Shown here in pieces: positions 15,362 to 61,230 of a stretch of 64,000 nucleotides of DNA (positions within the stretch are counted from its first letter, which is position 1; each line of letters begins with the position of its first letter). A program made the position numbers and the translations under genes. Source of the stretch: Thermoplasmata archaeon (lineage in GTDB: Archaea; Thermoplasmatota; Thermoplasmata; Lutacidiplasmatales; UBA184); the NCBI GenBank assembly GCA_035502035.1, contig DATJUZ010000028.1, forward strand, positions 1,639 through 65,638. The letters are read 5' to 3'. A model generated the notes under the pieces. The model saw only the letters and a program-made list of their open reading frames with translations, made no database searches and was not told the DNA's origin.

Positions 15362-15368
15362 GGTCGCC

Positions 15369-17129
15369 TCACTGGCCCCAGAACGGGTGGACCGAGCGAC
15401 GCATCCGCAGGACCTCGTCCAGGATCGCGCGCTCGACCGGGCTCAGCGGCTGGTCCTTCAGGGCGCGCGCCGCGGCCTCCGGCAGGGCGACCCAGAGCAC
15501 GTCCCGCTCCTTCAGGTTCCGGCCGACGACCGCCCCGTCGATCGACGCGGCGAGCTCCGAGCCCTCCGTCGCCTCCGCGACGCTCGAGTTCTCCCGCTGG
15601 AGGCTCTTGAGGGTCCCGACGTCCGACCCGTCCGACCGCATCAGACGGACCCCCGGGCGCAGCACCCCTCCGAGCACGCGCACCCCGACGATCGCCGGCT
15701 TGGAGGCCCGGAAGACGAACCCCTCGAGCACCTCGAGCTTCGCCGGCCGCACGAGCTCGGCCCACCGGGCGAGGTCGACCTCCCGCTGCCGGGCCTGCCG
15801 CCAGGAGGCGTACTCCTCGATCGCCCGGTACATGACGTCGGCGCGGAAGATCCTCACCGTCTCGCCGGCCTCCCCGACGGCATCCGAGAGGACCGGGACG
15901 CCGAACGCGATCACCGCGCGGTGGGTCGGGTCGCGCACCGACGATTGCCGCATCACGGTCGCCCTCGAGACCGGACCGACCCCGGCCTCGTGGACCGGGA
16001 TCTTCTGTTCGCGGCACTCGAAGGCGAGCGCCTCGAGGCCCCCCAGGGTGTCGGCGAGGATCGCGACCCCGCTTTCCGCGAGCTCCGCGACCGGATGGGA
16101 GGCGGCGGCCAGCTCGACGCGCACGCGCTCCGTCTCCTCCGCCCCGTGGACGACCCTCAAGAGGCCCCCCGGCATCGCCTCCTCGATCCCGGGCGCGGCG
16201 AGGTAGACCCCCGCCGCGGCGTCGACCTCGGAGAGCGCCTCGAGCTTGCCCGCGCGCGCCTCGCGCCCCCCCTTCGCCGGCGCCGGCCGATAGAGGCCGC
16301 GGACACGGCTCGCGAACGGCTCGGTGCGGCCGGTGACGACGATCTCGTCGCCGAGCCGGAGGCGGCCGCGGTAGACGATGACGCTCCCGACCGGGCCGAC
16401 GCCCTTCTGGTCGCTCCGTTCGAGGATCGTCGCCTCCCCCCCCTCCCGGACGAGCTCGAGCTCCTCCGCGAGGAACCGCTGGGCGAGCCCGACCAGGAGC
16501 GCGATCAGCTCCGCGACCCCGACCCCGGTCTTCGCCGAGACCGGCACGATCCCGACGTTGCGGGTGAAGTCGCGGACCCGGTCGAAGCGCTCCGCGCTGA
16601 ACCCGAGCCGGTCCAGCTCCTCCGCCACGGCGTAGAGCCGGGCGTCCACGAGCTTCGCGAACTCCGAGCCGCTCCGCGCGATCTGCTCGAGGAGCGGCAC
16701 CGGGGCGGTGACCTTCCGCCAGCCGCTCAGCAGGTCGATCTTCGTGAGCGCGACGGCGAACGGGGTCTTCTCGCGGCGGAGGATCTGGATCGACTCGCGC
16801 GTCTGGGGCATCACCCCCTCGCGCGCGTCGATCACGAGCACCGCGAGGTCGGCGAGCGCCCCGCCGCGTCGCCGCATCGTCTCGAACGAGCGGTGGCCGG
16901 GCGTGTCGACGAACAAGAGGCCGGGGACGGTCAGCTGCGCGTCGCTGAGCACGCCGTGGGCGAGGCGGCGGACCGTCGCGCCGGTGACCTCGATGGCGCC
17001 GATGTGCTGGGTGATCCCGCCGGCCTCGTGGGATGCGCGGACGCTCCCGGCGATGCGGTCGAGGAGCGTCGTCTTGCCGTGGTCGACGTGCCCCAGGAGG
17101 GAGACGATCGGCTCGCGCAGCTCCGCCAC
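15369..17129 (-). CDS. infB: Translation initiation factor aIF5B (IF2 family GTPase)
   Basis: G motifs: GHVDHGKTTLLD, DTPGH, TKID. GTG 17129 (VAELREPIVSLLGHVDHGK) fits the 52-nt gap after the upstream stop. The track ORF's extension to 17849 overlaps the upstream gene. Confidence 0.9.
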   Translation of the reverse strand: MAELREPIVSLLGHVDHGKTTLLDRIAGSVRASHEAGGITQHIGAIEVTGATVRRLAHGVLSDAQLTVPGLLFVDTPGHRSFETMRRRGGALADLAVLVIDAREGVMPQTRESIQILRREKTPFAVALTKIDLLSGWRKVTAPVPLLEQIARSGSEFAKLVDARLYAVAEELDRLGFSAERFDRVRDFTRNVGIVPVSAKTGVGVAELIALLVGLAQRFLAEELELVREGGEATILERSDQKGVGPVGSVIVYRGRLRLGDEIVVTGRTEPFASRVRGLYRPAPAKGGREARAGKLEALSEVDAAAGVYLAAPGIEEAMPGGLLRVVHGAEETERVRVELAAASHPVAELAESGVAILADTLGGLEALAFECREQKIPVHEAGVGPVSRATVMRQSSVRDPTHRAVIAFGVPVLSDAVGEAGETVRIFRADVMYRAIEEYASWRQARQREVDLARWAELVRPAKLEVLEGFVFRASKPAIVGVRVLGGVLRPGVRLMRSDGSDVGTLKSLQRENSSVAEATEGSELAASIDGAVVGRNLKERDVLWVALPEAAARALKDQPLSPVERAILDEVLRMRRSVHPFWGQ

Positions 17130-17181
17130 GCCGGCCGCGAGGGCGCCCCGCCCATAGGGGTTTCGCGCGCGAGGGGGCCGG

Positions 17182-18474
17182 CTAGCCGGAGGGCGGGTCG
17201 GCAGTGAGGTCGGCGAGGCTCGACGCGACCAGCGGGACCGCCAGCTCGTCCGCCTCGACGCCCCCGTGACCTCCGACGAGCCGACGCCAGCTCGGCAGCC
17301 GCCCCGGCACGGTGTAGGTGATCCCTCCCGGGCTCGGCACGAGCACGACCAGGTCGCCGACGCGCTCGCGCAGCTCGGGGTGGTACGGCGGCGGCCCGAA
17401 GAGGCCGCCGTCGATCGCCTCCTCCGCCCGGAAGCACCGGGCACCGGCCGGCAGGCGGGCGAGCACCGCGCGCTCGAGCGCGGCCACCGCGCCCGCGCGC
17501 GCCCGGAGCAGACCGACGCGGCGGTCGCCCGTCGGCGGCCGGGCGAGATGCTCGAGGATCGTCGGCTCCGCGTCCAGCGCGGTCTGGAGGGCGGGGGCGA
17601 CCGGCACCTGCCCGTGGTCGGCGGTGACGAGCACCGTGGTCGAGCGCGCCCGTGCGGGCGGGAGCGCCCGAGCAACGGCGCCGAGCAGCTCCCCGAGCCG
17701 CTCGAGCTCGAAGTCGACCCACGGCGAGCCGGGCCCCCGGAGGTGCTGGACGGTGTCGAGCTCGTCCCAGTAGGCGAGCACCAGCGGCGGCGGGGACTCC
17801 CGCTCGAGCAGCTGGGCGAGGGCGGCGCCGAACTCCGCGAACGTCGCATACGGCTCGAAGGCGGCGCCGTCGTAGAGCAGGCGCGTGAACGCCCGCCCCT
17901 CGAACCGGTCGCGGCTCAAGGCGACCGCGCGCGGGACCGACGCGCGGAAGATCGGGGCGACCCCGAGGACCGCCGACGGGCTCCAGGACGGACCGACGAG
18001 CGCGTCCTCCGCGACGACGCCGATCGGCGACTGCCGGAGCATGTCGACGGTCGCCCCGAACGCGGGGAGGAACTGCCGGTACCCGACCAGGCCGTGACGG
18101 GACGGGGAGCTCGCCGTCGACAGGCTGGCGAGCGCGACCGTCGTCGTCGTCGGGAAGACCGACGTGATCGGCACGGCGGCCCGCAACCACGCGGCGGCGT
18201 GCCGGGCCCCGGCTCGCGCGGCCGCCGAGCGGAGCCGGGTGTAGCCGAGCCCATCGACGACGAACACGACGATCGGACCCTCGAGCCGGCGGCCCCGGAA
18301 CGGGTCGGTCCCGGCGGCGAGCGGGGGCAGCGCGAGCTCGGATGCCTCGCCGCCGAGCGCCTGCACGACCGAGCTCGCGACGTTCGGCAGCGACCGACCC
18401 GCGTACGCCGGCACGCTCACGCCGAGCCGGGGGTCCGGCGCGAGCAGCTCGGCGAGCCGGTCGGTCCCGCTCAT
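17182..18474 (-). CDS. Alkaline-phosphatase superfamily protein (COG1524 / type I phosphodiesterase-nucleotide pyrophosphatase-like)
   Basis: 430 aa. Metal and nucleophile motifs are VVFVVDGLGY, SVFPTTTTVALASL, HGLVGY and LVTADHGQ. The start overlaps the dpo4 stop (ATGA). Confidence 0.8.
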   Translation of the reverse strand: MSGTDRLAELLAPDPRLGVSVPAYAGRSLPNVASSVVQALGGEASELALPPLAAGTDPFRGRRLEGPIVVFVVDGLGYTRLRSAAARAGARHAAAWLRAAVPITSVFPTTTTVALASLSTASSPSRHGLVGYRQFLPAFGATVDMLRQSPIGVVAEDALVGPSWSPSAVLGVAPIFRASVPRAVALSRDRFEGRAFTRLLYDGAAFEPYATFAEFGAALAQLLERESPPPLVLAYWDELDTVQHLRGPGSPWVDFELERLGELLGAVARALPPARARSTTVLVTADHGQVPVAPALQTALDAEPTILEHLARPPTGDRRVGLLRARAGAVAALERAVLARLPAGARCFRAEEAIDGGLFGPPPYHPELRERVGDLVVLVPSPGGITYTVPGRLPSWRRLVGGHGGVEADELAVPLVASSLADLTADPPSG

Positions 18475-19661
18475 CGCTGCCCTGCGCGGGGGCCGCGACC
18501 GGAGGGGAACTCGTCCAGGGAGACCTGCCGCTGGCTTCGTCCGGAGAGGCGCTCGACGCGCACCGTCACGGTCCGCACGCCTCGGCGACGCCGGACGCGC
18601 TCATCAGTCCACAGGCTGCGGGCGAGGCGGTCCGCCTCCTCGACGAGCGCCTCGGAGCCCTCCCGCGCCGCCGGGAGCGCCCGACCCCGCTGGCTGCGCT
18701 CGAAGTCGGTCCATCGGAGCGCGACGACGACCGCACCGTAGCGGAGCCCCTCCTCCTCGAGGGCGCGGGCCAGCTCTCCGGCGAGCGGTCGGACGACCGC
18801 GAGGACCTCGTCCAGCGTGCTCGCGTCGGTCGGAAGGGTCCGGTCCGACGAGCGGCTGCGCGGCTCGCCCCGCTCCTCGACCGCCTCGTGGGGGTTCCCG
18901 CGGGCGAGGTCGATCAGCTCGCGGGCGAAGCCGCCGAGCTCCCGCAGGAGCTCGACCGGCCGCCGGGAGGCGAGCTCGCCGATCGTCCGGACGCCGTGCG
19001 CGTGGAGGATCTCCTCGGTCCGCGGGCCGACGCCCGGGATCGCGCGGACCGGGAGGGGGGCCAGGAACGCGGCGACCTCCGTCGGCGGGACCAGGAGGAC
19101 CCCTCCCGGCTTGGCCCGGTCGCTCGCGATCTTCGCGACGGTGCGCGAGGTCGCCACGCCGATCGACGCCGCGAGCCCGAGCCGGGCGCGGAGCTCCCGC
19201 TGGAGCTCGAGCGCGAGCTCCCGCGCCTGCTCCCCGGAGGGGACCGCGACCAGGAGCAGGCACTCGTCGATGCTGTAGGGGACGAGGACCCGGGCGCGCG
19301 GCCGCAGCAGCTCGCGCACCTCGTGGGCGGCCCGCTCGTACTTCGCGAACGTCGGGGGGACCCAGACGGCATCCGGGCAGAGCCGCGCCGCCTGTCGCAC
19401 CGGCATCGCGCTGCGGACGCCGAACGCCCGGGCCTCGTAGCTCGCGCTCAGCACCACGCCCCGGTTCGGTTCCTCGGACGGCGGCGGACCGACGATCACC
19501 GGCCGGCCCTCGAGCTCGGGGCGCTCGCGCCGCTCGACCGACACGTAGTAGGCGTCCAGGTCGACGTACAGGACCCAGTCCGGCGGCTCGGACCGCGCGG
19601 GCTCGGCGACAAGCCGCCGCGCGCCCCCCGAGGGGCGGGGTTCGGGTCCCGAGCCGGCCAT
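18471..19661 (-). CDS. dinB: Y-family DNA polymerase IV (Dpo4/DinB)
   Basis: Motifs are WVLYVDLDAYYVSVE, YSIDECLL and the HhH region IPGVGPRTEEIL. Confidence 0.9.
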   Translation of the reverse strand: MAGSGPEPRPSGGARRLVAEPARSEPPDWVLYVDLDAYYVSVERRERPELEGRPVIVGPPPSEEPNRGVVLSASYEARAFGVRSAMPVRQAARLCPDAVWVPPTFAKYERAAHEVRELLRPRARVLVPYSIDECLLLVAVPSGEQARELALELQRELRARLGLAASIGVATSRTVAKIASDRAKPGGVLLVPPTEVAAFLAPLPVRAIPGVGPRTEEILHAHGVRTIGELASRRPVELLRELGGFARELIDLARGNPHEAVEERGEPRSRSSDRTLPTDASTLDEVLAVVRPLAGELARALEEEGLRYGAVVVALRWTDFERSQRGRALPAAREGSEALVEEADRLARSLWTDERVRRRRGVRTVTVRVERLSGRSQRQVSLDEFPSGRGPRAGQR

Positions 19662-19707
19662 CGTCGCGATGACGGGAACGCCGGCCAGGGCGCCGACGGG
19701 CGGCCGC

Positions 19708-20427
19708 CTAGCCTCCGAGGTCGACCGCCTTCGCGTCGACGGTGAGACCGCTCGGCCCGATCGCGTACGGCTGGACCGCCCGCAGGTGCGGCGTGCGGCG
19801 CATCTTCAGGATGCGCAGGGCGAGCCCGACGCGGTGACCGTCGCCCGCGGTCCGGTAGCCGAGGACGACGACCCCGTCCGCGACGTACTCGGAGAGGCCG
19901 TCGCGGCTGACCTCCGGATGGAGCGGGTCGGCCTCCGCCGTGAGGACGGTCGTCGCGCCGCTCTCTCGGCAGGCGCCCGTGAGCGCGAACAGCGTCATCC
20001 GCCGGCTCGCCTCGTCCTCGCTCAGCATGTTGAGGAGGGAGACCGAGTCGACCGCGATCCGCTTCGCGCCGAGGCTCGCGAGCTCGCGCGCGAGCTCCCC
20101 CTGGATGCGGTGGAGGCTCTGGCGCGTCTCCTTCGGGTCGAGGCGGAGGACCTTGAGCAGGCCGCTCGCGACCGCGGCGTCGACCGGCCAGCCGAACTGG
20201 CGGGCCGTCTCGAGGAGCTGCGGTACGTCCTCCTCCAGCGACAGGTAGACGGTCTTCTCCCCGCGGCGGGTCCCCTCGAGGAGGAACTGGAGCGCGAGGC
20301 AGGTCTTGCCGGTCCCCGGTAGACCGGTGACGAGGACGACGTGGCCGCTCGGGAATCCTCCGCCGAGCATCTCGTCCAGACCGGCGACGCCGGTCGGGAC
20401 CTTCGGGGCCGGACTAGACGCGCTCAT
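19708..20427 (-). CDS. KaiC-like / RecA-superfamily ATPase (single domain)
   Basis: Motifs are PTGVAGLDEMLGGGFP, Walker A GLPGTGKT and Walker B RIAVDSVS. 239 aa. Confidence 0.85.
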   Translation of the reverse strand: MSASSPAPKVPTGVAGLDEMLGGGFPSGHVVLVTGLPGTGKTCLALQFLLEGTRRGEKTVYLSLEEDVPQLLETARQFGWPVDAAVASGLLKVLRLDPKETRQSLHRIQGELARELASLGAKRIAVDSVSLLNMLSEDEASRRMTLFALTGACRESGATTVLTAEADPLHPEVSRDGLSEYVADGVVVLGYRTAGDGHRVGLALRILKMRRTPHLRAVQPYAIGPSGLTVDAKAVDLGG

Positions 20428-21331
20428 ACTGCGTGGTCACGAGCCCGTTGGAGGCGTTGACCCGGATGACGAAGCGGCCGTGGTACTCCGCCGGCAGGCG
20501 GGAGAGGACCGGCATGAACTTCGGGATCAGCATCGAGCGCTGCCGGTGCGAGTAGTTGGCGCTCGACGTCCAGCGGAACTGCAGGACCCCGTCGACCGAG
20601 TCGGCGACCGCGTGCTCGACCGCGGGAGGGGCGACCCCCTCGCTGAGGAGCAGGTAGACGACCCCGCCCCAGCGCTTCGCGCGCCGTCGCAGGCCCTTGA
20701 GCATCGTGAGGACGTCGTTCGCCTCGATCCCCTGGCGGACGAGCAGGTCGGTCAGCGAGTCGACGACGACCAGGTGGTTCGGGGCGCTGGTATCGAGCGC
20801 GTCGGCGAGCGCCCGCAGCGGTCCGTCGGCCGTCCCGGCGGGCGCCGGCTTCGCCTCCGAGAGGAGGGGGCCGGTGAGCGACGCCCAGGACGACGGGACG
20901 ACCGTGTCGCGGAAGTACGTCGGCGAGAGGTCGTGGAACGAGAGGTGACGCACGAGCACCTCGGGGTAGGAGCCGGTGAACGACGCGCGCATCTCGTCCA
21001 GGACCTGCTCGCGCGAGCGGCTCGTGCTGACGTAGGCGATCCCCTCCGGGTAGACGAACGGCCCGCGGGCGCTCCCGAGGTAGAACCGGTGGAGCTCCGG
21101 GTCGTCGTAGTGGAGCATGAGGTGCACCGCCGACGTCAGGGCGAACTCCTGGTGGCCGGCGCCGGCCTCGCCGACGAGCAGCACGAGCGAGCCGGCCGGC
21201 ACGCCTCCGGTGAGGTAGTCGAAGTCCGGCACGCCGGTCGGGATGCGCGGAGGGGCCCCCTCGAGGTCGACCCGCGTCGGCGCGTGGGTCGCGAGCGGAG
21301 GGTAGAACGGCCGGACGCCTTCGATCGCCAT
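20414..21331 (-). CDS. KaiC/RecA-like paralogue with a degenerate Walker A (predicted inactive)
   Basis: Aligns to its neighbour (IPTGVPDFDYLTGGVPAGSLVLLVGEAGAGHQEF versus VPTGVAGLDEMLGGGFPSGHVVLVTGLPGTGKTCL). The GK[TS] is replaced by GHQ. A Walker-B-like LVVVDSLTDL is retained. Overlaps the downstream gene by 14 nt. Confidence 0.7.
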   Translation of the reverse strand: MAIEGVRPFYPPLATHAPTRVDLEGAPPRIPTGVPDFDYLTGGVPAGSLVLLVGEAGAGHQEFALTSAVHLMLHYDDPELHRFYLGSARGPFVYPEGIAYVSTSRSREQVLDEMRASFTGSYPEVLVRHLSFHDLSPTYFRDTVVPSSWASLTGPLLSEAKPAPAGTADGPLRALADALDTSAPNHLVVVDSLTDLLVRQGIEANDVLTMLKGLRRRAKRWGGVVYLLLSEGVAPPAVEHAVADSVDGVLQFRWTSSANYSHRQRSMLIPKFMPVLSRLPAEYHGRFVIRVNASNGLVTTQYERV

Positions 21332-21362: not shown

Positions 21363-22703
21363 TCAGGTATTAGTGTGCTCCGCTCGAAGTGAGGCCGGCT
21401 CGGAGGGCGGGAGCGGGCCCTTCAGGAACTCGCGCAGCAGCACCGTGGCGTAGGCGCCCTTCGGGAGGGCGAAGCGGAACCAGACCCCCGCGTCGTCCGC
21501 CTCGAGGGAGAGCGGCGGGACCGGAAGGAGCAGCGGACGCCACGTCCCGTCGCTCGCGAGCTCGGGGGCGGCCGGGACCCCGAACGCCTCGCTCCGGACC
21601 CCCTCCTCCTCCATCAGGCGGCGGACGAGCGCGCCCGGGGTTCCCGCCGGGAGGTCGGTGCGCAAGCCGACCAGCGGCCCGGCGACGCACGCCCGGCCCC
21701 GGGCGACGAGCTCGACGCACTCCGGGAGGTTCTCCTCCGCCACGCGGGCGGTGTCGCTCCCGCGGAACGTCCCGTCGCGGCCGAGACGGAGCAGGACGTC
21801 GCCCGGAACGGGGCGCCCGAGGGGCCACCCCTCCGCGTGTCGGGTCGTGAGGTAGCGATTGAACAGGTAGGCCTGGAACGCGTGGACGAACAGGCGCCGG
21901 AGCTCGTAGGGGAGCGCCCGGAGCGCCCGCGCCGGGGCGGCGCCGTCGGCCAGCCGCTCGAGGAGGGCGCGCTCGAAGCGGTACTCGGCCGGGAACTCGC
22001 GGAGCGCGCGGGCCGGATCGCGATGCTCGGCGAACGCGGCCCGCGCCGCGTCCCCGGCCCCCGGGCTCCCGGTCGGCGGCCGGTCGACCAGGTACGCCTC
22101 CACGGCCCGCGCCAGATCGCCCCGGACGATCCAGCGGCCGACCTCGTGCGTGATCGGTCGGACCTCCCCGAACCGCTGGGCCCCGAAGAAGTTGGGGAAC
22201 CCGTCGAGCTCGCGCAGCTCGGCGTCGACGCGGCGGAACGCGGCGAGCGCCGCCTCCGGTTCGGCGAGCTCGCTGACGTGGATCTCGAAGGCGTTCGCGT
22301 AGTGCCGGCCGAGCACGAGGCCCTCGCGCGCGCGGTAGGCGTCCAGCAGCCGGACGTCGGCGAGCCCGAGCTCGGCCGTCGGGGGCTCCCCCCGGTAGGA
22401 GAACAGGCGCTCCGCGACCGCGCGGCGGTCCTTCGTCCCCGACCAGGCGACCGACCGGCGGGGGAGCCCGAGACGACGCCCGATCGCGTCGGCGAGCTCG
22501 TGCTGCTCCCAGCCCCGGCTCTCGACGCGCAGGACCGTGTACGCGCCGAGCGGGTCCGGTCGCGGGTAGCTCGAGACCTCGCGGACCCGGAACGCCTCGG
22601 GCGTCGCCTTGAGGCGCCCGGGCGCGCCCGGGCTCCGGGAGAGGTAGAAGCCGAGACCGATCGCGACCTCGGCGGGCGGTGGCGCGAGCTCCCCGCCGGC
22701 CAC
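21363..22703 (-). CDS. truD: tRNA pseudouridine synthase TruD/Pus7 family
   Basis: The catalytic-region motif GTKDRRAVAERLFSY is present. GTG 22703 (preceded by GGAGGTG) sits 21-28 nt downstream of GTAATAAC. The track start at 22808 is unlikely. Confidence 0.85.
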   Translation of the reverse strand: MAGGELAPPPAEVAIGLGFYLSRSPGAPGRLKATPEAFRVREVSSYPRPDPLGAYTVLRVESRGWEQHELADAIGRRLGLPRRSVAWSGTKDRRAVAERLFSYRGEPPTAELGLADVRLLDAYRAREGLVLGRHYANAFEIHVSELAEPEAALAAFRRVDAELRELDGFPNFFGAQRFGEVRPITHEVGRWIVRGDLARAVEAYLVDRPPTGSPGAGDAARAAFAEHRDPARALREFPAEYRFERALLERLADGAAPARALRALPYELRRLFVHAFQAYLFNRYLTTRHAEGWPLGRPVPGDVLLRLGRDGTFRGSDTARVAEENLPECVELVARGRACVAGPLVGLRTDLPAGTPGALVRRLMEEEGVRSEAFGVPAAPELASDGTWRPLLLPVPPLSLEADDAGVWFRFALPKGAYATVLLREFLKGPLPPSEPASLRAEHTNT

Positions 22704-52508: not shown

Positions 52509-53465
52509 CTAGGGCACCCCCAGCACGACGAACGCGAAGATCGAAAGGATCGCGAGCGAGAACGACAGCGCGAGGAAGTCGCGGATCTTGAACAGCCGCA
52601 CCTTCGCGAGCGTCGCCTCCAGCAGGACGACCAGGGCGACCAGCGCGAGCAGCTTGCCGAGCAGCACGCCGATGTTCAGGACCGCCCCGACGAGCGACGG
52701 CTCGGCGAACATCCCCCACGGGAGCAGGAAGACGTTGACGAAGACCGAGTAGAGCAGGAACTGCTTCATCCAGCCGTTCCAGCGAAGGACGCCGAGCAGT
52801 CGGCCGGAGTGCTCGAAGATCCGACCGTCCTCGAGCATGCCGAACTCCATGAGTCCGGCGCTCTCGACCGGGAGCTTGCCGGTCTCGACGAGCAGGAGCA
52901 GGAAGAACGCGGCGGTGACGAGCAGGTGCGTCGGCGAGACGTACGCCGACATCGACGACGAGAGCAGGTTGTTCGTGACGTACGGGTTGTTCGTTCCCGT
53001 GATCACCGCGACGGCGAAGAACACGATGATCAGCGTCGGCTCGGCGAACGCGGCGAAGGAGACGGTGCGGCTGGCGCCCAGGACCGCGTAGTTGCTACCG
53101 GAGTCGATCGCGACGAGCAGGGTGAGTATGCCGGCGAGGCCGAACAGCAGCCCTCCGCCGAGGAAGTCGACGGTGGAGGCGAACGGGATCGGGTAGGGAG
53201 TGATCACCGGTACCACCACGGCGATCACGAGGTAGGCGCCGAAGGCGACGAACGGCGCGACGCTGAAGACCCGGGAGGCGGAGGACGGGAGGACCGTCTC
53301 CTTGCGGAGGTACTTCCTCAGGTCGCGGTACGGCTGGAGGATCGACGGACCCGTGCGGGACTCGGTCCACGCCTTCCCCCGCGCGGCGATCCCGGCGAGC
53401 AACGGGGCGAGGAGCAGAACGGTCGCGGCCTGGAGAACGTTGACGACCTGAGCCGTTGCGTCCAC
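52509..53465 (-). CDS. NuoH/HycD/HyfC-like membrane subunit
   Basis: 318 aa. Supporting sequences are ILQPYRDLRKYLRKE and LVETGKLPVESAGLMEFGMLED, typical of the HycD/NuoH family. First gene of the operon. Confidence 0.85.
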   Translation of the reverse strand: MDATAQVVNVLQAATVLLLAPLLAGIAARGKAWTESRTGPSILQPYRDLRKYLRKETVLPSSASRVFSVAPFVAFGAYLVIAVVVPVITPYPIPFASTVDFLGGGLLFGLAGILTLLVAIDSGSNYAVLGASRTVSFAAFAEPTLIIVFFAVAVITGTNNPYVTNNLLSSSMSAYVSPTHLLVTAAFFLLLLVETGKLPVESAGLMEFGMLEDGRIFEHSGRLLGVLRWNGWMKQFLLYSVFVNVFLLPWGMFAEPSLVGAVLNIGVLLGKLLALVALVVLLEATLAKVRLFKIRDFLALSFSLAILSIFAFVVLGVP

Positions 53466-53620
53466 TGCTGCCCACTCCGGTGTTCGGGAGCAGGCGTCAT
53501 TGGCCCGTGGGGCGGTTCGCCGGCAGGGCCGGCCGGCGGACGCCTCCGCCTGCCCGGTGGGGAGAGGGCGAGGTACTTAGCCATGCCGACGGGAGCGCAG
53601 CGGGGACCCCTACGACCGAC

Positions 53621-53631
53621 GGCCCCTCGGG
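53621..53631 (+). repeat. Left copy of the 11-bp direct repeat GGCCCCTCGGG bracketing the low-GC island
   Basis: Exact match to 59486-59496. Both copies are followed by a T-rich/TATA-like sequence (cTTTGGGATTTATG versus TTTCTTTAAATA). Confidence 0.35.
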
Positions 53632-53700
53632 CTTTGGGATTTATGTCCTGCAACAGGAACCTTGGGAAAAAATTCAACTTTGCGGGATTTTTTGAGTCTC

Positions 53701-53960
53701 GCCGGTCCCGACATCGGTCGCGCATTAGCGCCCGGAGAAGGGCGTAAGGTTCCAGGCAGCGAAACTGACTGCTTCGTCTCGAGTAATCAGCCGGATGGGA
53801 GAGCGTGCCCCTGCTCTGTAACCGAAGGGGCTTCACCCCTGGGATTGACAACCTTCCCGCCGACGCAGACGAAACCGGTTGCCGCCAATGGAGTCACCCC
53901 CGGGCTAGCCCCGAACTAGTGGGCAGACCGTAGCACCTGGCCGTCGAGCTGCTGGCCGGC
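53701..53960. ncRNA. Candidate structured non-coding region of unknown class (strand unresolved)
   Basis: About 260 nt with no convincing ORF and about 63% GC, higher than its island neighbours. Local hairpins: GCGCCC-GGAGAA-GGGCGT (53728-45), AGAGC-GTGCCCCT-GCTCT (53800-17), AGGGG-CTTCA-CCCCT (53826-40), GCTAG-CCCCGAA-CTAGT (53904-20). The ends are complementary: GCCGG (53701-05) and CCGGC (53956-60). The region is preceded by A/T boxes GAAAAAATTCAAC and GATTTTTTGAG. Confidence 0.2.
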
Positions 53961-53970
53961 TGCTCATGGC

Positions 53971-54327
53971 CTACAAACCGAATCTCTTTCGTAAGAACCC
54001 GAATGCCGTCTTCCCCTTCGAGGATCCAAAGCTAATCTGGGGAGCCGGACTTGAGGGGACCTTTGTTCTGTCCCTCGTTGTCAGTGCGGCCCCGAGCTGT
54101 GAGTCGGTCCATAGGACCAGAACGTCGTACTGCACGGGCGTTCCGGGCTTTGCGATCGCGACGCCTTGTGGGTCGACAACAAGCGTGGCGGATCCTGACT
54201 CGGTTCGGAAGACCCAGATTTGGGGGAGGTACCCTCTTATGATTCCGCCGAAGATTCCCTTTAGGTGAGGCTGTAGCTCCTGCGATATCTGCGGGCACAG
54301 TGCACCCAAGAGCTCGACATCGGTCAT
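53971..54327 (-). CDS. Small protein (118 aa), possibly an SCP2-like fold, partner of the upstream ATPase
   Basis: ATGA overlap with the ATPase stop. TLVVDPQGVAIAKPGTPVQYDVLVLWTDSQLGAALT ... KGKTAFGFLRKRF loosely resembles the SCP2 layout. Confidence 0.55.
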   Translation of the reverse strand: MTDVELLGALCPQISQELQPHLKGIFGGIIRGYLPQIWVFRTESGSATLVVDPQGVAIAKPGTPVQYDVLVLWTDSQLGAALTTRDRTKVPSSPAPQISFGSSKGKTAFGFLRKRFGL

Positions 54328-55496
54328 CGTGAGTCGATTGAGTCCCCTTCAGTGGCTCTCGGAAGAACGAGCCGCTCGATTAAGCGTCTGCGGATTACAT
54401 GATAGTAGGCGATGACCGGGGCCTTCCGTAGCTCGTAGTGCCCATAGGAGACCTTCAGGAGTATACCCTGCGCGACAAGTCTGCCTATGTACGGCGCTTG
54501 GATTGCCAGTTCTTCGATGATCTCAGAGCTACGGAGGTGACCCTTACCCGAGCTCGCAATCTTCGCGAAGGCCAGGATGTCGTTATCAGAGGCTCTCGCA
54601 CACTCTCGATTGAGCCAGCCCGCAGCGCTCTCAAGGGCAGTCCCTAGACGGGTGTTCACCGCCTCAGCGTCAAGGATGGCGTTTTCGCGATAGGTCGCTC
54701 TAGCGATGCAGTGGACGAGGTACGGGTAACCATGTGACAGGCGAAAAACAGTCTCAACTCCACTGTCACTCCACGTGGACCTCGAGTCGACTCTTCGTAG
54801 GGGATTGTCTAGGGCGTCTCTCGTCTCCGCGGCAGAGAGCTCGCCGACGTCGAAGCTAGAGTCGGTAAACACTCTGGCGACCGGCGAAGAGTCATGAGTC
54901 GCGAGTCGGTCTGAGAACTCGACCCCCCCGGTTACGACAAGGAAGACCGGCGTCGGCGAGTTGGCCTCCGCAATCGTCTTCAAGGCGCCGAGGCCGGATC
55001 GATCGAGCTGCTCTGCGTCGTCAATGGACACCATAAGCAGGGGAATCCCATCCAGGGAGTCCATACAGTCACGCCAGATCGAGATTGCTTGACTGGCCGG
55101 CCCCGCCTCTCGTGGCGAGATTGTAACGCCCGTACCGGCGACGTTTACGCCGCTGAACCGACGAAGGAAGGCCTTGAACTTCTCGCCAACGGTCGCACGG
55201 GTAGAAAGCTGCCGAGCGACCTCTGCGACGATAGTCCTGTACAATCGATCCTCGGAGGTTTCGCTCTGTAATGGTATGTCCACGGCGACTGCCTCGGACA
55301 GCCTTGATGTCACTTCGGCCCGGACCTTCCGCAGGATCGAGGTCTTACCGCTGCCACGGTATCCGTGGAACAGCATGGGGGTGGTACGCGTTAATCGCCT
55401 AGCAGACTCGACGGCCTCCTCCGACTTTGCCAGAATTTCGCGCCGCCCGGCAAAAACAGCTGGGTCCGCCGGCTGGCCCGGCGCGTAAGGGTTCAC
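54324..55496 (-). CDS. AAA+/archaeal-ATPase-type NTPase with a C-terminal winged helix (Arch_ATPase/ORC-like architecture)
   Basis: N-terminal NPYAPGQPADPAVFAGRREIL, Walker A GYRGSGKTS, Walker B LLMVSIDDAEQL, and a C-terminal wHTH-like ILAFAKIASSGKGHLRSSEIIEELAIQAPYIGRLVAQGILLKV. Confidence 0.8.
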   Translation of the reverse strand: MNPYAPGQPADPAVFAGRREILAKSEEAVESARRLTRTTPMLFHGYRGSGKTSILRKVRAEVTSRLSEAVAVDIPLQSETSEDRLYRTIVAEVARQLSTRATVGEKFKAFLRRFSGVNVAGTGVTISPREAGPASQAISIWRDCMDSLDGIPLLMVSIDDAEQLDRSGLGALKTIAEANSPTPVFLVVTGGVEFSDRLATHDSSPVARVFTDSSFDVGELSAAETRDALDNPLRRVDSRSTWSDSGVETVFRLSHGYPYLVHCIARATYRENAILDAEAVNTRLGTALESAAGWLNRECARASDNDILAFAKIASSGKGHLRSSEIIEELAIQAPYIGRLVAQGILLKVSYGHYELRKAPVIAYYHVIRRRLIERLVLPRATEGDSIDSR

Positions 55497-55554
55497 CCTT
55501 GCGGGTAAGTTCCACTTCTGATAAGCGTTCTGACGCGCTTGCCGTGGGACTCCA

Positions 55555-55572
55555 GTTTAATCGAAATTAAAC
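55555..55572. promoter_or_regulatory. Inverted repeat GTTTAAT-CGAA-ATTAAAC in the AT-rich spacer upstream of the ATPase gene
   Basis: Perfect 7-bp arms with a 4-nt spacer, 59-76 nt upstream of the ATPase ATG. It could be a TATA/operator for the ATPase or a terminator for the disrupted ORF. Confidence 0.3.
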
Positions 55573-55576
55573 GATT

Positions 55577-56151
55577 CTATACGGGTCGCTCCCCGTAACC
55601 TCCTGCAAGGCTCGCGATGCGCGACATCGTTCCCGCAGCGTACGACACACCGTCGGTCAAGAACTGCCTCGCTCGGGGAGTCATCTCCTGCCCGGCCGGG
55701 CTCACGGGTATGTCTGAGCCGCCGTAAACTGGCTCGAGAGTCGCAATCGGGAAGAGGGGGCCAGCTTCGAGTGTCTCAAAGTAGGTTCGGACCAGTTCGT
55801 GGCATCCCCCAAAGGGATCGGTATTCTGAAGGCGCGTGAGGTCGGGCCACCACTACTCCCTCCTAGTCCCGACCGCTACACCAGCCTGCCGCATCCTCGA
55901 GTGGATGTCAGAAAGGAGACCCCGGGCCGCCACAACGTCGACCTCGGCAGAGTGCCAGTCGTCAGCATGCAGAGCTGTCTGGAAATATAACCCAGGACCG
56001 CCGCGGTGACGTTGCCGTCGGATACGGTTGTCCCAAGGTCAAACCAGAGACGGCCACCTGGGGTTTCAGTCCAAATTTGGACCATGCCAGTCTCGTTGCC
56101 CAGGTAGGGGCCGCGACCACTGAAGTCGAAATCCCGGCGCGGCGTCCCCAT
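55577..56151 (-). pseudogene. Disrupted ORF: one frameshift plus one in-frame TAG
   Basis: Frame A starts at ATG 56151 (MGTPRRDFDFSGRGPYLGNETGMVQIWTETPGGRLWFDLG...GYIS). Protein-like sequence then continues in another frame (ALHADDWHSAEVDVVAARGLLSDIHSRMRQAGVAVGTRRE) up to TAG 55855-55853. The same frame stays open beyond the TAG (WWPDLTRLQNTDPFGGCHELVRTYFETLEAGPLFP...GYGERPV) to the stop at 55579-55577. Confidence 0.4.
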
Positions 56152-56261
56152 CGACTCGTCCTCTGCTTGGTCGTGGACTGGCAGGCAGCAGTGCTACGGA
56201 CTCATACCACCTAGCCTCATATCCTTGGGATGGCTTAGGAAAAGTAGCTACGCTATGAACC

Positions 56262-57878
56262 ATGCCTGAGTGGGTTTTGATAAGCGGTGCGCCGTATGTG
56301 ACAGTTTCTGCCATTGGCCTAGCACAGGGTAGGCCGCCCAACAATGGCGCGAATTTTGGCCCCGACACCCCTGGGACCGTAACGACCGGAATACAGGAAG
56401 CCCTCAACTTCATAGCCACGACAGGAGGGAGGGTACACTGCATACAAGGAGCGTACCTGGCGTCCGCTACTATCTCGTTCACAGGATCGAACCAACTGCT
56501 TTGGTTTGAGCCGGGGAGCTCCCTTACCTTTGCGAATGGGATATCGGGAGCAGTCCCTGCCTGGTTCGACCCGGAGGGATACTACTCGAAGAGCGACTCC
56601 CGGCTGATTCATATGGGATCCGACCTCGCAGATCCCATTGTTTACTCGCATCAGTGGCTAGTCGGGAACGGGCTCGTGGTAAACTGGGGGAGCAATACGA
56701 CACCAACGCTAAACAATGGGGTTTGCGTGACCGTGCCTGGGCAAGCCTCGGACCCGGCCTACACCGGCCCTGGAGGCTCCGACTACCTGATTGAGGGCTT
56801 GGTCTGCAGTGGCAAGATATTCTGTACCATCCTTGTGATGGCAGAGAACTTCAGCGCCTCCTCGCCAGTGCTGCTGACAGAGCCGCAGCGCACGAGGTTC
56901 ATTCGAGTTCGAAGAGTCTCCGCAACCTACTCCCTCGATGCCAACGCCGCGAAAATGAGCGCCATCCTGCTCCGGTGCAGCTCGGATGTTCTCGTCTCCG
57001 ACTGTTATGTCGACTGCTCCGCTCTCGGCAACGTAGACTACGATACGATCAACGTCACGGGCCACACCGGAGAGCTCGCCCAGGTCGAGGTCCGAAGATC
57101 CTATTTCCGCGGAAACGGCGTCTCGGGCCAGTGTTTGGAAGTTCAAGGCGGAGTAAGCCCCTCAACCGCAACATCGAGCACGGTGGGACTGCACGACGTC
57201 AGGTTTTCCCAGTGTACGTTCGATACTGGTGCCGCCACCGGAGCGCCGGTGGCTGGGCTCTCGGGCGCGTTTATTGACGATAACAACAGCACCACGGCCC
57301 TTGCGCAGCTCTGGAACGTCGAATTCTACCAGTGTCGCTGGATCAACTGCGGGGTCTCGATTCAGAGCACTTCGATAGCTATAACGGTCGGAGCGAGCCC
57401 GTTCACCTACACTAATGGGACTCCCGACCCTCAGGAGGTTACCGTTACGGGGGGGACTGTCTCAGCCATCACAGTTGGCGGTGTGTCGGTCCCCGTTGCA
57501 TCGCCCACGAGACTGTTGGTCAGACCCGGGGTCTCGGTGGTGGTTACCTACTCGTCGAGCCCGACGATGACCTGGAACGCATTTGGCTACCTGCGGTTCA
57601 GCGGGCAGTTGCCCTCAGCCATCGGCACCGCGGGCTCCTTGCAGGCGCGAGGTCCGAACGACAAAGGACCTCTGATGGCGGTCGGTTCTAGTCCCTTTAC
57701 CTACCAGAACGTAGACGGATTCGACGAGGTGGTCGTCGTGGACGGAGGATCGGTTTCGAGCATCTCCTTCAACGGTGCAGCGACCCCTCGAACCGGCGGC
57801 GATTTCAAGCTGGTCGCAGGTGACACCATCACCGTGTCTTACTCATCCGCACCCTCCATCAATGTTCAGGGCAAGTAG
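56262..57878 (+). CDS. Right-handed beta-helix (pectate-lyase-3 / tailspike-like) protein with two C-terminal repeat domains
   Basis: N-terminal GPDTPGTVTTGIQEALNFIATTGGRVHCIQGAY matches the pectate_lyase_3 entry motif. The middle has periodic Cys/Asn/Val-rich coils. No signal peptide. 538 aa. Confidence 0.8.
   Translation: MPEWVLISGAPYVTVSAIGLAQGRPPNNGANFGPDTPGTVTTGIQEALNFIATTGGRVHCIQGAYLASATISFTGSNQLLWFEPGSSLTFANGISGAVPAWFDPEGYYSKSDSRLIHMGSDLADPIVYSHQWLVGNGLVVNWGSNTTPTLNNGVCVTVPGQASDPAYTGPGGSDYLIEGLVCSGKIFCTILVMAENFSASSPVLLTEPQRTRFIRVRRVSATYSLDANAAKMSAILLRCSSDVLVSDCYVDCSALGNVDYDTINVTGHTGELAQVEVRRSYFRGNGVSGQCLEVQGGVSPSTATSSTVGLHDVRFSQCTFDTGAATGAPVAGLSGAFIDDNNSTTALAQLWNVEFYQCRWINCGVSIQSTSIAITVGASPFTYTNGTPDPQEVTVTGGTVSAITVGGVSVPVASPTRLLVRPGVSVVVTYSSSPTMTWNAFGYLRFSGQLPSAIGTAGSLQARGPNDKGPLMAVGSSPFTYQNVDGFDEVVVVDGGSVSSISFNGAATPRTGGDFKLVAGDTITVSYSSAPSINVQGK
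57378..57866 (+). repeat. Protein-level tandem duplication (~64 aa x2) at the C-terminus of the beta-helix protein
   Basis: VGASPFTYTNGTPDPQEVTVTGGTVSAITVGG...VVVTYSSSPTMTW (57378-57575) aligns with VGSSPFTYQNVDGFDEVVVVDGGSVSSISFNG...ITVSYSSAPSINV (57675-57866). Confidence 0.7.
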
Positions 57879-58139
57879 CTCCTGGCCGAGTGGCCAGCAG
57901 CCGAGGCGGCGTGCTCCCAGTCCCCGTTCTGACCAGTCTTGAGATTGGGGTCACGAAGGAGGCTCGCCGAGTGGAAGGGCTGGGTCCGAGTTCCCCCCCC
58001 ACTGATTCAGCAAGCTCTCTTGCGATTGAGGGCGAGTCAAACGAACTCGACGTGACATCATCACTGGGCGAGTGGAGACCCCGTTGTCACCAACAAACCG
58101 ATGAGCCGTCAAGCGCCCAACCCAAGGGCGCGCCCCTCG

Positions 58140-58796
58140 CTACTCTCTTGATATCAAGAACTGGTGTCGTCCGAGGTACGTCAACCTAGTGCAGTGGACC
58201 GCTGAAAAATTGTCCACCGCCCTAGTTACTCCGTCGTCCCAATCGCTCTGAGGCAAGTCGTAGTCGTCCCCTGCAAGGGCCCCCCCTGCCTTTACTTTTG
58301 GCCACCACGCGGAAAGGTCTGCCAGAACGGCATGATATCGGTGGTCTGCATCGAGGTAGACGAAGTCTACTGAACCGTCCGGAAACTCCTTCGCGGCGTC
58401 GACTGACGGATTGCGATGTATCACCACCCGCCCCGCGCGCGTCTCGGCGTGCAGACGCACAGTGGCGCTCTTGTAGGCCTGCTCAATCTTGGCCTGACTA
58501 GTATTCCCGTTACCGCCCCATCGACGTGAGGGATGGCCCGGAACCTGTTTCCACTGATCCACTAGATGAAGGAATCTCGGCTGGACAATCCTAAGTATCC
58601 TCTCAGAAAACTCCCCGGCCCACACTCCAACCTCGACGCCAATCCCTCCTCGTGGGAGGCGCTCGAGGATGGGGTCACGGTACCACAGGGGTCTCCAGTG
58701 TAGCTGCATCCTACCCTGAGACGCGGGGTTGAAAGCCGAGTACCCCTTGCTTGTCAGAGATTTGACCTTGACGCCGACACCCTGCGGTGAAGACAA
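58140..58796 (-). CDS. Class I SAM-dependent methyltransferase (Methyltransf_24-like)
   Basis: Motif I is GVEVGVWAGEFS. VDFVYLDADHRYHAVLADLSAWWPKVKAGGALAGDDY follows. The start could be the internal M30. Confidence 0.8.
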   Translation of the reverse strand: MSSPQGVGVKVKSLTSKGYSAFNPASQGRMQLHWRPLWYRDPILERLPRGGIGVEVGVWAGEFSERILRIVQPRFLHLVDQWKQVPGHPSRRWGGNGNTSQAKIEQAYKSATVRLHAETRAGRVVIHRNPSVDAAKEFPDGSVDFVYLDADHRYHAVLADLSAWWPKVKAGGALAGDDYDLPQSDWDDGVTRAVDNFSAVHCTRLTYLGRHQFLISRE

Positions 58797-59040
58797 CTAC
58801 CTCGGTTGATAGGTGTCCATCGGGGTGACCGACACGGACTCGTAGCTTGCGGCCCAGCGTGACTGTCCGCGGCCCCGCCTTACATCTCGCCTAGCCCGCC
58901 ATTGGTCGACGCCTGAGGGAAGATAGTAGTAGGTCGCAGTCGGGCGGCGCCTTCCGCAGCTGGCCAGAAGAGGAGGCGTTAACGCGCAGCCATGACGATT
59001 TAACCGTGCTCGAGTGCCCGCGCGAGGGAGAAGCATAGAG

Positions 59041-59505
59041 ATGACAGCGCACCCCATCAAGAGAGGCTCGAGAAGGGTGGTGGTGCGGCCCATGAGGGTG
59101 GAGGATATTTCAGAGGTCTATCACCTCGGCGAGCGCATCTACAACGTGGGCGAAGCACCGCTCCTTTATCGCACCTGGGACCCCTATGAGGTTGCGGCCC
59201 AGTTCGCTGCAGAGACCGAACTCTCAATCGTTGCGACCGTTTCTGGGAGATTGGTGGGTTTCTGCCTCTCTACAACAATCGAGAAGCCGGGAAAGCCGTG
59301 GCGCTACGGCTACCTCATCTGGCTCGGTGTAGACCCCAGCTACCGCCTCAGGCATGTGGGCCGCAAACTCGCTCAGCGAACCCTCCGCCTCATGAAGCAA
59401 CGAAGGGCTCAGTCGATCCTCGTTGACACACCCGAGGACAACAGGGGCGCGATCAACTTCTTCGAGCGGCAGGGGTATCGTCGCCGGCCCCTCGGGTTTC
59501 TTTAA
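59041..59505 (+). CDS. GNAT family N-acetyltransferase
   Basis: ATG 59041 (MTAHPIK...). Supporting sequences are LGVDPSYRLRHVGRKLAQRTL and NRGAINFFERQGY. About 50% GC. Confidence 0.8.
   Translation: MTAHPIKRGSRRVVVRPMRVEDISEVYHLGERIYNVGEAPLLYRTWDPYEVAAQFAAETELSIVATVSGRLVGFCLSTTIEKPGKPWRYGYLIWLGVDPSYRLRHVGRKLAQRTLRLMKQRRAQSILVDTPEDNRGAINFFERQGYRRRPLGFL
59486..59496 (+). repeat. Right copy of the direct repeat GGCCCCTCGGG
   Basis: Identical to 53621-53631. It lies in the last codons of the GNAT gene, immediately before the thermosome TATA box. Confidence 0.35.
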
Positions 59506-59508
59506 ATA
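59501..59508 (+). promoter_or_regulatory. TATA box (TTTAAATA) of the thermosome gene
   Basis: A canonical archaeal TATA 55-62 nt upstream of ATG 59563. Confidence 0.6.
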
Positions 59509-59535: not shown

Positions 59536-59551
59536 CCGAGAGTACTCTCGG
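59536..59551 (+). promoter_or_regulatory. Perfect 16-bp palindrome CCGAGAGTACTCTCGG in the thermosome leader, overlapping the SD-like GGAGGA
   Basis: Located about 28-43 nt downstream of the TATA box and 12 nt upstream of the ATG. The right arm ...CTCGG runs into GGAGGA (59550-59555). Confidence 0.4.
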
Positions 59552-59562
59552 AGGATAGAACG

Positions 59563-61230
59563 ATGCTGACAGGACAGACCCCGATCTTGGTGCTGAAGGA
59601 AGGAACGAAGCGCGAGAAGGGCCGCGGCGCCCTCTCGAACAACATCCAGGCGGCGAAGGCGATCGCGGACTCGGTCCGCTCGACGCTGGGGCCGCGCGGG
59701 CTCGACAAGATGCTGGTCGACTCGATGGGCGACGTCGTCGTGACCAACGACGGCGTGACGATCCTCAAGGAGATGGACGTCGAGCACCCGGCCGCGAAGA
59801 TGCTGGTCGAGGTCGCGAAGACCCAGGACCAGGAGGCCGGGGACGGCACGACGACCGCCGTCATCCTCGCCGGCGAGCTGCTCAAGCGCGCCGAGGAGCT
59901 CATCGAGCAGAACATCCACCCGACGATCATCTCGCAGGGCTACCGCCTCGCGGCGACCAAGTCGCTCGAGCTCCTCCAGCAGGACAGCCACCCGGTCGCG
60001 ATCGCCGACCACGACACCCTCCAGCGCATCGCCGTGACGTCGATGAGCTCGAAGTCGGTCTCGTTCAACCGGGAGATGCTCGGTGAGATCGCCGTGAAGG
60101 CGGTCACCGCGGTCGCCGAGAAGAAGGGGAGCGCCTACAACGTCGACCTCGACAACATCCAGCTGATCAAGAAGCAGGGCGGTTCGATGGCCGACACCCA
60201 ACTGATCGAAGGCGTCATCGTCGACAAGGAGAAGGTCCACTCCGGGATGCCGTCGCGCGTCGAGAACCCGAAGATCGCGCTCCTGGACGCCGCGCTCGAG
60301 ATCAAGAAGACGGAGATCGACGCGAAGATCGAGATCAACGACCCGAACCAGCTGAACGCCTTCCTCCAGGAGGAGGAGAACATGCTGCGGCGGATGGTCG
60401 ACCAGGTGAAGAAGTCCGGCGCGAACGTCGTCCTCTGCCAGAAGGGGATCGACGACCTCGCCCAGCATTTCCTCGCGAAGGAAGGGATCTACGCGGTCCG
60501 GCGCGTCAAGAAGTCGGACATGGAGAAGCTCGCGAAGGCGACGGGCGCGAACGTCGTCTCGAAGGTGAGCGAGCTCACCCCCGAGGACGTCGGCACGGCC
60601 GGCGCCGTCGAGGAGCGGAAGATCGGCGAGGACGCCCTCACGTTCGTGACGGGCGCGAAGAAGGCCCGCGCGGTGTCGATCCTGATCCGCGGCGGGACCG
60701 AGCACGTCATCGACGAGATCGAGCGGTCGCTGGACGACGCGCTCAACGTGGTGGCGGTCGCGGTCGAGGACGGCCGGTACGTCTTCGGCGGCGGCGCGAC
60801 GGCGGTGGAGCTCGCGATGCGGCTCCGGGACGAGGCGGCGAAGGTCGGCGGGCGCGAGCAGATCGCGTTCGAGAGCTTCGCGGACGCGCTCGAGACCGTG
60901 CCGCGGACCCTCGCGGAGAACGCCGGGCTCGACCCGATCGACATCCTGATCGAGCTGCGGAAGGCGCACAAGGCCGGCCAGAAGATGGCGGGCGTGAACG
61001 TGCACTCCGGCAAGGTCGACAACATGCAGACGCTCAACGTCATCGAGCCGATCCGCGTCGGACGGCAGGCGATCGAGAGCGCGACGGACGCGGCCGTCAT
61101 GATCCTCCGGATCGACGACGTGATCGCGTCGAAGTCGTCCCCGCCCCCGTCGGGCGGCCCCGGTGGCGGGCCCGGCGGCGGGATGGGCGGCATGGGCGGG
61201 ATGGGCGGCGGGGACTTCGGCGACGACTAG
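59563..61230 (+). CDS. ths: Thermosome subunit (group II chaperonin)
   Basis: Motifs are [26 protein letters not shown] and [12 protein letters not shown], with the [13 protein letters not shown]-terminal tail. 555 aa. Confidence 0.95.

Follow-up and report, generated by a model that had tools for sequence, protein, structure and literature searches.

A low-GC accessory-gene islet without mobility genes between a hydrogenase-like operon and the thermosome gene of a soil Thermoplasmata archaeon

Small horizontally acquired genomic islets without mobility genes are already well known. They have an atypical GC content, codon usage and oligonucleotide signature, are present in a lineage-specific manner, lie between genes, carry accessory or orphan genes and are flanked by a short direct repeat. 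These traits are shared by positions 53632–59485 of a 64-kb stretch of DNA (hereafter the window) from a soil Thermoplasmata metagenome-assembled genome (MAG), of which near-identical contigs are present in ENA, JGI and Logan assemblies. We suggest that these 5.9 kb are probably a horizontally acquired, non-autonomous accessory-gene islet that would have been taken up in a single event after the split from the lineage of L003, its only syntenic relative. As a kind of DNA the islet is not surprising to a specialist; unusual are only its clean borders, a stop codon placed in the TATA box of a chaperonin gene, and the recurrence of islets with a beta-helix gene beside thermosome genes. It differs from the described islets in that one end lies in a truncated cargo gene and that two divergent core promoters closely enclose it, those of a group-4 hydrogenase/Mrp-like (hyf/mbh-like) operon and of the thermosome gene.

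Classical genomic islands differ from this locus by an adjacent tRNA gene and an integrase. ARAGORN finds no tRNA gene in the 64 kb, Rfam gives no match at its gathering thresholds in the window, and no integrase, transposase or Cas1 domain was found in Pfam, PHROGs and NCBIfam scans of the islet proteins and of the scanned open reading frames (ORFs) of the spacers. A first-pass annotation of this DNA, made from the sequence alone, had already stated that integrase, transposase and tRNA are missing, and the scans of the window confirm this. With the integrated archaeal plasmids and proviruses that have tyrosine integrases (SSV and pNOB8 types) the islet shares direct repeats at the borders and a gene for an ORC/Cdc6-like AAA+ ATPase with a winged helix-turn-helix (wHTH) domain. 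In SSV-type elements the attachment site is within the integrase gene, and in the window, likewise, one repeat copy is inside a gene. In contrast to these elements, the islet has no integrase, its target is not a tRNA gene, a split-gene test failed (see below) and no relatives are known among viruses or plasmids: INPHARED, PLSDB and IMG/VR, a comparison that had been proposed before, hold no protein or DNA match for the islet.

Casposons, which are self-synthesizing archaeal transposons that depend on Cas1, resemble the locus in their archaeal host group and in the length of their target duplications, which is near that of the imperfect 15–18-bp repeat found here, and a real casposon lies beside a homologue of the islet ATPase in the archaeal contig L139. 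However, the casposon hallmarks Cas1, family B DNA polymerase (PolB) and terminal inverted repeats are all missing from the islet. Finally, the variable islands for cell-surface and glycan functions are, like this one, low-GC flexible blocks with a beta-helix protein of carbohydrate-binding type, a methyltransferase and an acetyltransferase, and in two other genomes the homologue of the beta-helix protein is paired with a Kelch/PKD surface protein. Here the islet differs in having no glycosyltransferase, flippase or S-layer gene and a beta-helix protein without signal peptide, and any surface function of the islet is putative.

The composition sets the islet apart from the rest of the window. 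The GC content in 500-nt windows is 0.57–0.61 from about 53750 to 59500 as compared to 0.70–0.78 over the other 58 kb, and outside the islet no 1-kb bin of the window is below 0.66. The GC content at third codon positions (GC3) is 0.65–0.73 in the six ORFs of the islet, 0.94–0.96 in the flanking hyf-like genes and 0.98 in the thermosome gene. In addition, the tetranucleotide deviation, normalized for base composition, amounts to 0.40–0.49 at 53–60 kb against a window-wide mean of 0.25 (standard deviation 0.07), and this is the sole stretch of the window more than two standard deviations above the mean. The low-GC island of about 5.9 kb that had been described from the sequence thus stands, as sliding GC, GC3 and tetranucleotides all show the break. 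The thermosome gene also has a low raw GC content of 0.62–0.66 in its first kilobase. Because its GC3 is 0.98 and the low value is common to all relatives, we regard this as an effect of amino-acid composition and place the gene outside the islet. Positions 53632–59485 are therefore the sole compositionally deviant block of the window, foreign by composition and codon usage. The six ORFs are homogeneous in GC (0.57–0.62) as well as in GC3, which argues for the arrival of the islet as one piece. As their GC3 is not ameliorated although the window and L003 have diverged heavily at synonymous sites, the arrival may have been recent.

Both borders carry a direct repeat. The 11-mer GGCCCCTCGGG, reported in the first-pass annotation and confirmed here, occurs on the plus strand at 53621–53631 and at 59486–59496, and it can be extended to 16 matches in 18 positions, with CGACGGCCCCTCGGGCTT at 53617–53634 (+) as the left and CGCCGGCCCCTCGGGTTT at 59482–59499 (+) as the right copy. 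A third copy of the 11-mer, in inverted orientation (21816–21826, minus strand), is far from the islet; three copies in the window compare with 0.49 expected, and 2 of 100 shuffles reach three. The 11-mer is also rare elsewhere, since only three occurrences were found in about 1.9 Mb of fetched related loci when the copies on the own contig are excluded. A repeat search detected no terminal inverted repeats at the borders. On the left, a two-segment maximum likelihood analysis with three window sizes places the GC change point at 53632–53633, which is 1–2 nt past the left 11-mer. The block that is monomorphic between assemblies starts at 53630, within 2 nt of both this compositional border and the end of the left copy.

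The right copy straddles the join between a gene fragment and the host promoter. The gene (59014–59505, plus strand; likely start M27 at 59092) codes for a RimI-like GNAT acetyltransferase that is truncated at its C-terminus. In an exhaustive search 594 homologues were found, and every alignment ends at query residues 155–158; a hidden Markov model (HMM) built from 79 homologues aligns to residue 157 only (position 59484). The protein of the window ends 8 residues past the FFxxxGF motif. The aligned homologues extend for 12–38 residues or more and go on with a conserved strand H-x-Y-L-S-K-x-L (consensus H-V-Y-L-S-K-N-L) and a tail. Judged from its sequence, the GNAT protein without this core strand is probably inactive. 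The right repeat copy codes for its residues R157–F162, and as stop codon (59503–59505) its gene uses the TAA within the TATA box TTTAAATA of the thermosome gene (59501–59508, plus strand). Previously, it had been noted that the right 11-mer runs straight into this TATA box. In fact the 11-mer abuts the promoter, but it is located within the GNAT reading frame (codons R158–G161) and not in a non-coding spacer. As the GNAT gene is cut at the right repeat copy, the right end is a break inside a gene and not the terminus of an element, and as this joint removes the 3′ end of the gene, the remaining DNA is a fragment.

The conservation of the host sequence sets the limits from outside. On the left, the TATA-like box CTAAGTAC of the hyf/mbh-like operon (53573–53580, minus strand) is the last host sequence that is kept in an alignment of 22 relatives, together with a structured leader of about 95 nt; beyond them nothing is kept. 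On the right, the thermosome TATA box and a hairpin in the 5′ untranslated region are kept in 15 relatives, and nothing upstream of the TATA box is. Since host conservation ends at the one TATA box and restarts at the other, the foreign DNA fills essentially the whole gap, with its left end about 50 bp from the hyf-like TATA box and its right end abutting the thermosome TATA box. The left border is known with a precision of 2 nt and the right border with one of 16 nt.

A scan for thermosome genes in 185,579 species genomes gave 80 loci, and only one of them, L003 (MFD03399.bin.2.20), is syntenic with the window, at 81–89% nucleotide identity. At the junction, synteny is lacking in the 79 other genome loci and also in 38 JGI metagenome loci that contain NuoH-like relatives; the metagenome loci have none of the islet genes. 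In L003 the NuoH-like and the thermosome genes are 652 bp apart, without any of the islet genes, and of the 126 related loci that the scans of genomes and metagenomes gave, none has the genes for the 118-aa protein, the ATPase, the methyltransferase or the GNAT protein. The homology between L003 and the window is clear to about 53580, weak to 53631 and restarts at 59494. The first-pass annotation had anticipated an empty site in which these two genes are direct neighbours around a single GGCCCCTCGGG. They are neighbours in L003, but between them lie about 410–490 bp of unrelated GC-rich DNA without the 11-mer, and L003 was ruled out as a clean empty site for these two reasons.

Both junction sequences are identical in independent assemblies (L081/L087, L082, L137, L138, L140 and L141). 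Recurring unchanged, they are not an assembly chimera. Across assemblies from at least four samples the islet itself is identical except for one patch in the methyltransferase gene, and its flanks are polymorphic.

From these observations we suggest the following course of events. A donor of about 59% GC and a GC3 of about 0.7 would have supplied a single segment of DNA, carrying cargo genes unrelated to each other. After the split from the L003 lineage this segment would have entered the spacer between the hyf/mbh-like and the thermosome promoters. Here two routes are conceivable: an integrated element may have lost its distal part, and any integrase with it, when the DNA up to the joint was deleted, or foreign DNA may have been captured at a staggered or microhomologous break. 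In both cases the 11-bp (16/18) repeat most likely shows where the two recombination joints lie. Only joints sparing both promoters would have survived, and such a selection for two intact promoters would explain that the foreign DNA extends as far as the two TATA boxes.

Several points weigh against this proposal. There is only one syntenic relative, a different species whose spacer cannot serve as a clean empty site, so that the distinction between insertion here and loss in L003 rests on composition. Neither a donor nor a second genomic context of the islet was found. Moreover, the repeat was observed post hoc and could be a coincidence, for which the probability is about 3e-4 to 1e-2 depending on the width of the zones considered.

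Among the alternatives, a discrete element of the transposon, casposon or integrase type could have inserted upstream of the thermosome promoter and duplicated a target of 11–15 bp, its mobility gene being lost or acting in trans. A rare direct repeat exactly at both borders speaks for it, and the 15–18 bp of the extended repeat fall in the range of casposon target duplications. Moreover, a casposon does occur in related archaea directly beside the closest homologue of the ATPase. In L139 (GCA_037025365.1, JBAIHP010000003.1) positions 11208–20989 are a casposon of about 9.8 kb with terminal inverted repeats of 106 nt that are 96% complementary, and its genes code for Cas1, DNA_pol_B_2 (a PolB of the protein-primed type), SIR2_2 and an N6_N4 methylase that also has an endonuclease domain. 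The casposon sits 68 bp downstream of the closest ATPase homologue (57% identity), and the same arrangement recurs in six or more contigs of different samples. However, as the ATPase gene lies 68 bp outside the left inverted repeat, it is a neighbour of the casposon and not part of its cargo. A casposon link of the islet was rejected for this reason and because the islet has no casposon features. The simple insertion with target duplication put forward in the first-pass annotation is supported only in part, since the right end breaks the GNAT gene, terminal inverted repeats are absent and other islets with a beta-helix gene have no flanking repeats. As, in addition, there is no Cas1, PolB, transposase, integrase or tRNA, and the 11-mer is not present as a single copy in L003, we consider an origin of this type rather unlikely.

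It is also possible, though we doubt it, that the repeat is a coincidence and that the islet was joined by illegitimate recombination without a sequence signature. The repeat was spotted after the fact, ten other 11-mers recur in the 6.5-kb region, and an exact 11-mer or longer is in common in 1.3% of random pairs of 80-nt zones from the window. Furthermore, no repeats were found at the borders of other islets of the same gene pool. On the contrary, both copies match borders that were defined independently, by the change point on the left (within 2 nt) and by the GNAT truncation and the promoter conservation on the right (a 16-nt window). With these narrow zones the chance of a coincidence at the borders is about 3e-4, rising to about 1e-2 with wider zones.

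The beta-helix gene of the islet (56262–57878, plus strand) has counterparts in other islets. For its 538-aa product we found 24 other proteins, about a dozen of them full-length relatives with 30–49% identity. The full-length relatives with a named source are all from Thermoplasmata MAGs; weaker matches cover a short segment only and include bacterial proteins. The homologues always reside in islets of low GC3 (0.51–0.76) within backgrounds of GC3 0.86–0.98, namely in L084 (3500–15200), L002 (6000–10600), L134 (2500–6700) and L085 (1–1300). Thus, a Thermoplasmata family of beta-helix proteins is defined that always travels in low-GC3 islets. In L084 the low-GC3 block, which is at least 11 kb long, directly adjoins a thermosome gene (60% identity with that of the window), and the islet of L002 is 7 kb downstream of a thermosome gene, L002 having been found through its thermosome gene, which is an ascertainment bias. 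Three lineages (those of the window, L084 and L002) therefore have a low-GC3 islet with a beta-helix gene no more than 10 kb away from a thermosome gene. More speculatively, one could imagine that the islet is the insertion product of an unrecognized, integrase-less mobile gene pool of high-GC soil Thermoplasmata. The pool, with about 59% GC and a GC3 of about 0.7, would carry this lineage-specific protein family, prefer sites beside thermosome genes and be mobilized in trans, perhaps through casposases or a different enzyme that makes staggered cuts and leaves duplications of 11–15 bp. We regard this as very unlikely. No border repeats were found at the beta-helix islets of L134 and L002.

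The same protein could suggest that the islet is the remnant of a provirus, with the beta-helix protein as tailspike or receptor-binding protein and the methyltransferase as DNA methyltransferase. PHROGs contains a tail-spike match (E 1e-7, residues 363–440, which are the C-terminal repeats) as well as a match to a 'DNA methyltransferase' for the methyltransferase. An AlphaFold2 (AF2) model from an alignment of 14 sequences (predicted local distance difference test, pLDDT, 81.6; predicted template modelling score, pTM, 0.84) has a right-handed parallel beta-helix of pectate-lyase-like fold and two C-terminal beta-sandwich repeats, and a signal peptide is absent; the AF2 model from the single sequence (pLDDT 35) was unusable and was discarded. 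The best Foldseek matches of the model are the tailspikes of HK620, Sf6 and CBA120. However, the TM-scores are only about 0.3, and cellular proteins such as polygalacturonases, the AlgE epimerase and the PfbA adhesin match too. The earlier label 'tailspike-like' is therefore appropriate only at the level of the fold; the homologues lie among cellular genes, in L002 and L134 next to a membrane-anchored surface protein with Kelch and PKD domains. The protein is putatively of a carbohydrate-binding or carbohydrate-cleaving type. In addition, no capsid, portal, terminase or integrase gene is present in the islet, for which PHROGs yields only the C-terminal repeat of tail spikes and generic enzymes, and the viral sequences of INPHARED and IMG/VR contain no relative, protein or DNA.

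The methyltransferase (58140–58796, minus strand; from the likely true start 189 aa, 58140–58709) does not fit a provirus either. It is a class I S-adenosylmethionine methyltransferase of the Methyltransf_24 family (Pfam E 1.9e-17) whose nearest relative is 51% identical, followed by proteins of soil bacteria with 41–46% identity. By these relationships it is of bacterial type, and its TylF-like sequence is that of the small-molecule or sugar O-methyltransferases. We consider a provirus remnant very unlikely.

We find still less to recommend a Campbell-type integration, in which a circle would have recombined with the host through a shared sequence of 11–18 bp in its GNAT gene and split this gene in the manner of SSV. 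The two joints do carry identical repeat copies, and the reading frame stays open for 96 further codons across the hypothetical fusion of the right with the left end. However, translation past the left copy yields a peptide that neither restores the conserved C-terminal strand of the GNAT protein nor extends the match to the HMM of the full family. An HMM specific for the tail scores the fusion with 7.6 bits, as compared to a mean of 8.1 bits for 5000 random controls, 90% of which score at least as high. By these two HMM tests a circular permutation was rejected as the origin of the truncated GNAT gene. That the region is ancestral and was deleted in L003, its low GC content reflecting function and not foreign origin, could be argued because L003 is the one syntenic comparator and has a spacer without homology to the window, but this is the least credible explanation of all in view of the GC3 of 0.65–0.73 against 0.94–0.98 in every neighbouring host gene, the tetranucleotide signature that deviates after correction for base composition, the 0 of 126 related loci with any of the four genes named above and the bacterial nearest relatives of the methyltransferase.

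Returning to the horizontally acquired islet, its gene content is agreed by the Pfam, PHROGs and NCBIfam scans, and the gene identifications made at first sight have proved correct. Its left end (53632–53970) is A+T-rich and non-coding, with a local GC content of 0.35–0.40 and runs of T and A at 53640–53695, and lies downstream of a transcription unit of two genes on the minus strand; an 85-aa ORF within it has no Pfam or PHROG match. The first of the two genes from the border (53971–54327) codes for the 118-aa orphan protein p118 and overlaps by 4 nt (ATGA) with the stop of the ATPase gene (54324–55496); both have a GC3 of 0.67. For p118 the domain and profile scans found no family, and no homologue accompanies the ATPase homologues of L127–L133 and L139. 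The spacer that follows (55497–56261) contains an A+T-rich promoter-like stretch and an ORF of 91 codons (55876–56151, minus strand). This ORF had previously been described as disrupted; we find it to be an orphan ORF without a family match up to E 10 except one noise match. No remnants of an integrase or transposase were found among the scanned ORFs of the spacers, none of which belongs to a family.

The ATPase has 390 aa and scores above the Pfam cut-offs for AAA_16 and AAA_22 and slightly under those for nSTAND1 and nSTAND6; the similarity to the AAA+ proteins TniB and TnsC is below threshold. We found 58 homologues. A profile from 27 family members finds Cdc6/ORC4 as best PDB matches (E 9e-5), and 20 of these 27 members carry an AbiEi-type winged helix at the C-terminus. 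The family proteins are about 375 aa long and are found in Thermoplasmata, Micrarchaeota and some bacteria. PADLOC gave no significant match to a defence system among the proteins of the window, and the AbiEi-type wHTH domain is visible only at the level of the family. ORC/Cdc6-like AAA+ wHTH genes are often carried by archaeal extrachromosomal elements, and the protein would resemble the initiator or regulator ATPases of such elements. Nothing ties the islet genes into one pathway, and the methyltransferase is under selection.

This selection is seen in the variation between assemblies. In a patch of 120 nt (58428–58548) of the methyltransferase gene 13 substitutions are found, 12 synonymous and one non-synonymous. 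With a single amino acid change, these substitutions indicate purifying selection together with recombination with a diverged allele. The alternative allele is present in L081 and probably also in L140 (15 mismatches), and L083 ends and L141 begins exactly at the edges of the patch. We conclude from these differences and contig ends that a diverged methyltransferase allele exists in the population. Contig ends bracket polymorphic patches at 58427|58549, at 59524/59593 and, for two assemblers with one sample, at 53567|53630. In this sample (ERZ27256501/SRR8881341) the left-flank contig ends at 53567 and the islet contigs of both assemblers begin at 53630, and three other assemblies read through 53568–53629 with a sequence identical to the window. 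The 62 nt of this host-side spacer have probably a second allele, as the comparison with the methyltransferase patch suggests.

The contig L082 is identical to the window through the islet and the first 274 nt of the thermosome gene. Its positions 6208–6927 (59837–60556 of the window) differ from the window by 8%, with 57 nucleotide and 20 amino acid changes, and are about as distant from L003 as from the window. The islet could appear to reside here in a second, 8%-diverged genome. This was rejected since, in the same sample, the contig of the left flank has 99.4% identity with the window, and the divergence is thus better read as a recombination patch in the thermosome gene than as mobility of the islet. 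Such a tract may have come from a third lineage through recombination, or the assembly may have switched strains here.

The neighbouring operon on the left is transcribed leftward and comprises, in order from the islet, the NuoH-like gene (52509–53465), a gene for a 215-aa membrane protein, Proton_antipo_M, Complex1_49kDa, Oxidored_q6 and a second Proton_antipo_M. It has been shown that the fluoride riboswitch is linked to operons of the formate-hydrogen-lyase type (PMC11139923). The leader of the present operon (53484–53559, minus strand) matches the full model of the fluoride riboswitch (RF01734) in Rfam with 21 bits, below the gathering threshold of 34. The low score is due to an extra hairpin of 14 nt inserted after P1. 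The pseudoknot is GGCGU/ACGCC in place of GGaGU/ACUCC, and the riboswitch-like structure is kept in 21 relatives, with compensatory changes in 7 of 24 pairs. The leader is predicted to be a sub-threshold variant of this known riboswitch class. On the right follows the thermosome gene (59563–61230; Pfam Cpn60_TCP1, E 3e-191). Exact look-ups of the thermosome and of the protein P0026 gave no match. Directly before its start codon the hairpin CCGAGAGTACTCTCGG is followed by GGAGG (59536–59554), and this hairpin and the TATA region TTTAAATA(C/G)AACCGC are kept in most of 15 related genomes.

The islet is a cleanly delimited acquisition in Thermoplasmata, in which foreign DNA is tolerated right against the core promoter of an essential chaperonin gene. 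Its analysis has also defined an ORC/Cdc6-like family of AAA+ proteins with an AbiEi-type wHTH domain, and the population data point to patches of recombination around a monomorphic islet. If the recurrence of islets in the proximity of thermosome genes is not random, it would indicate an insertion hot spot or an unrecognized mobilization system in these archaea.

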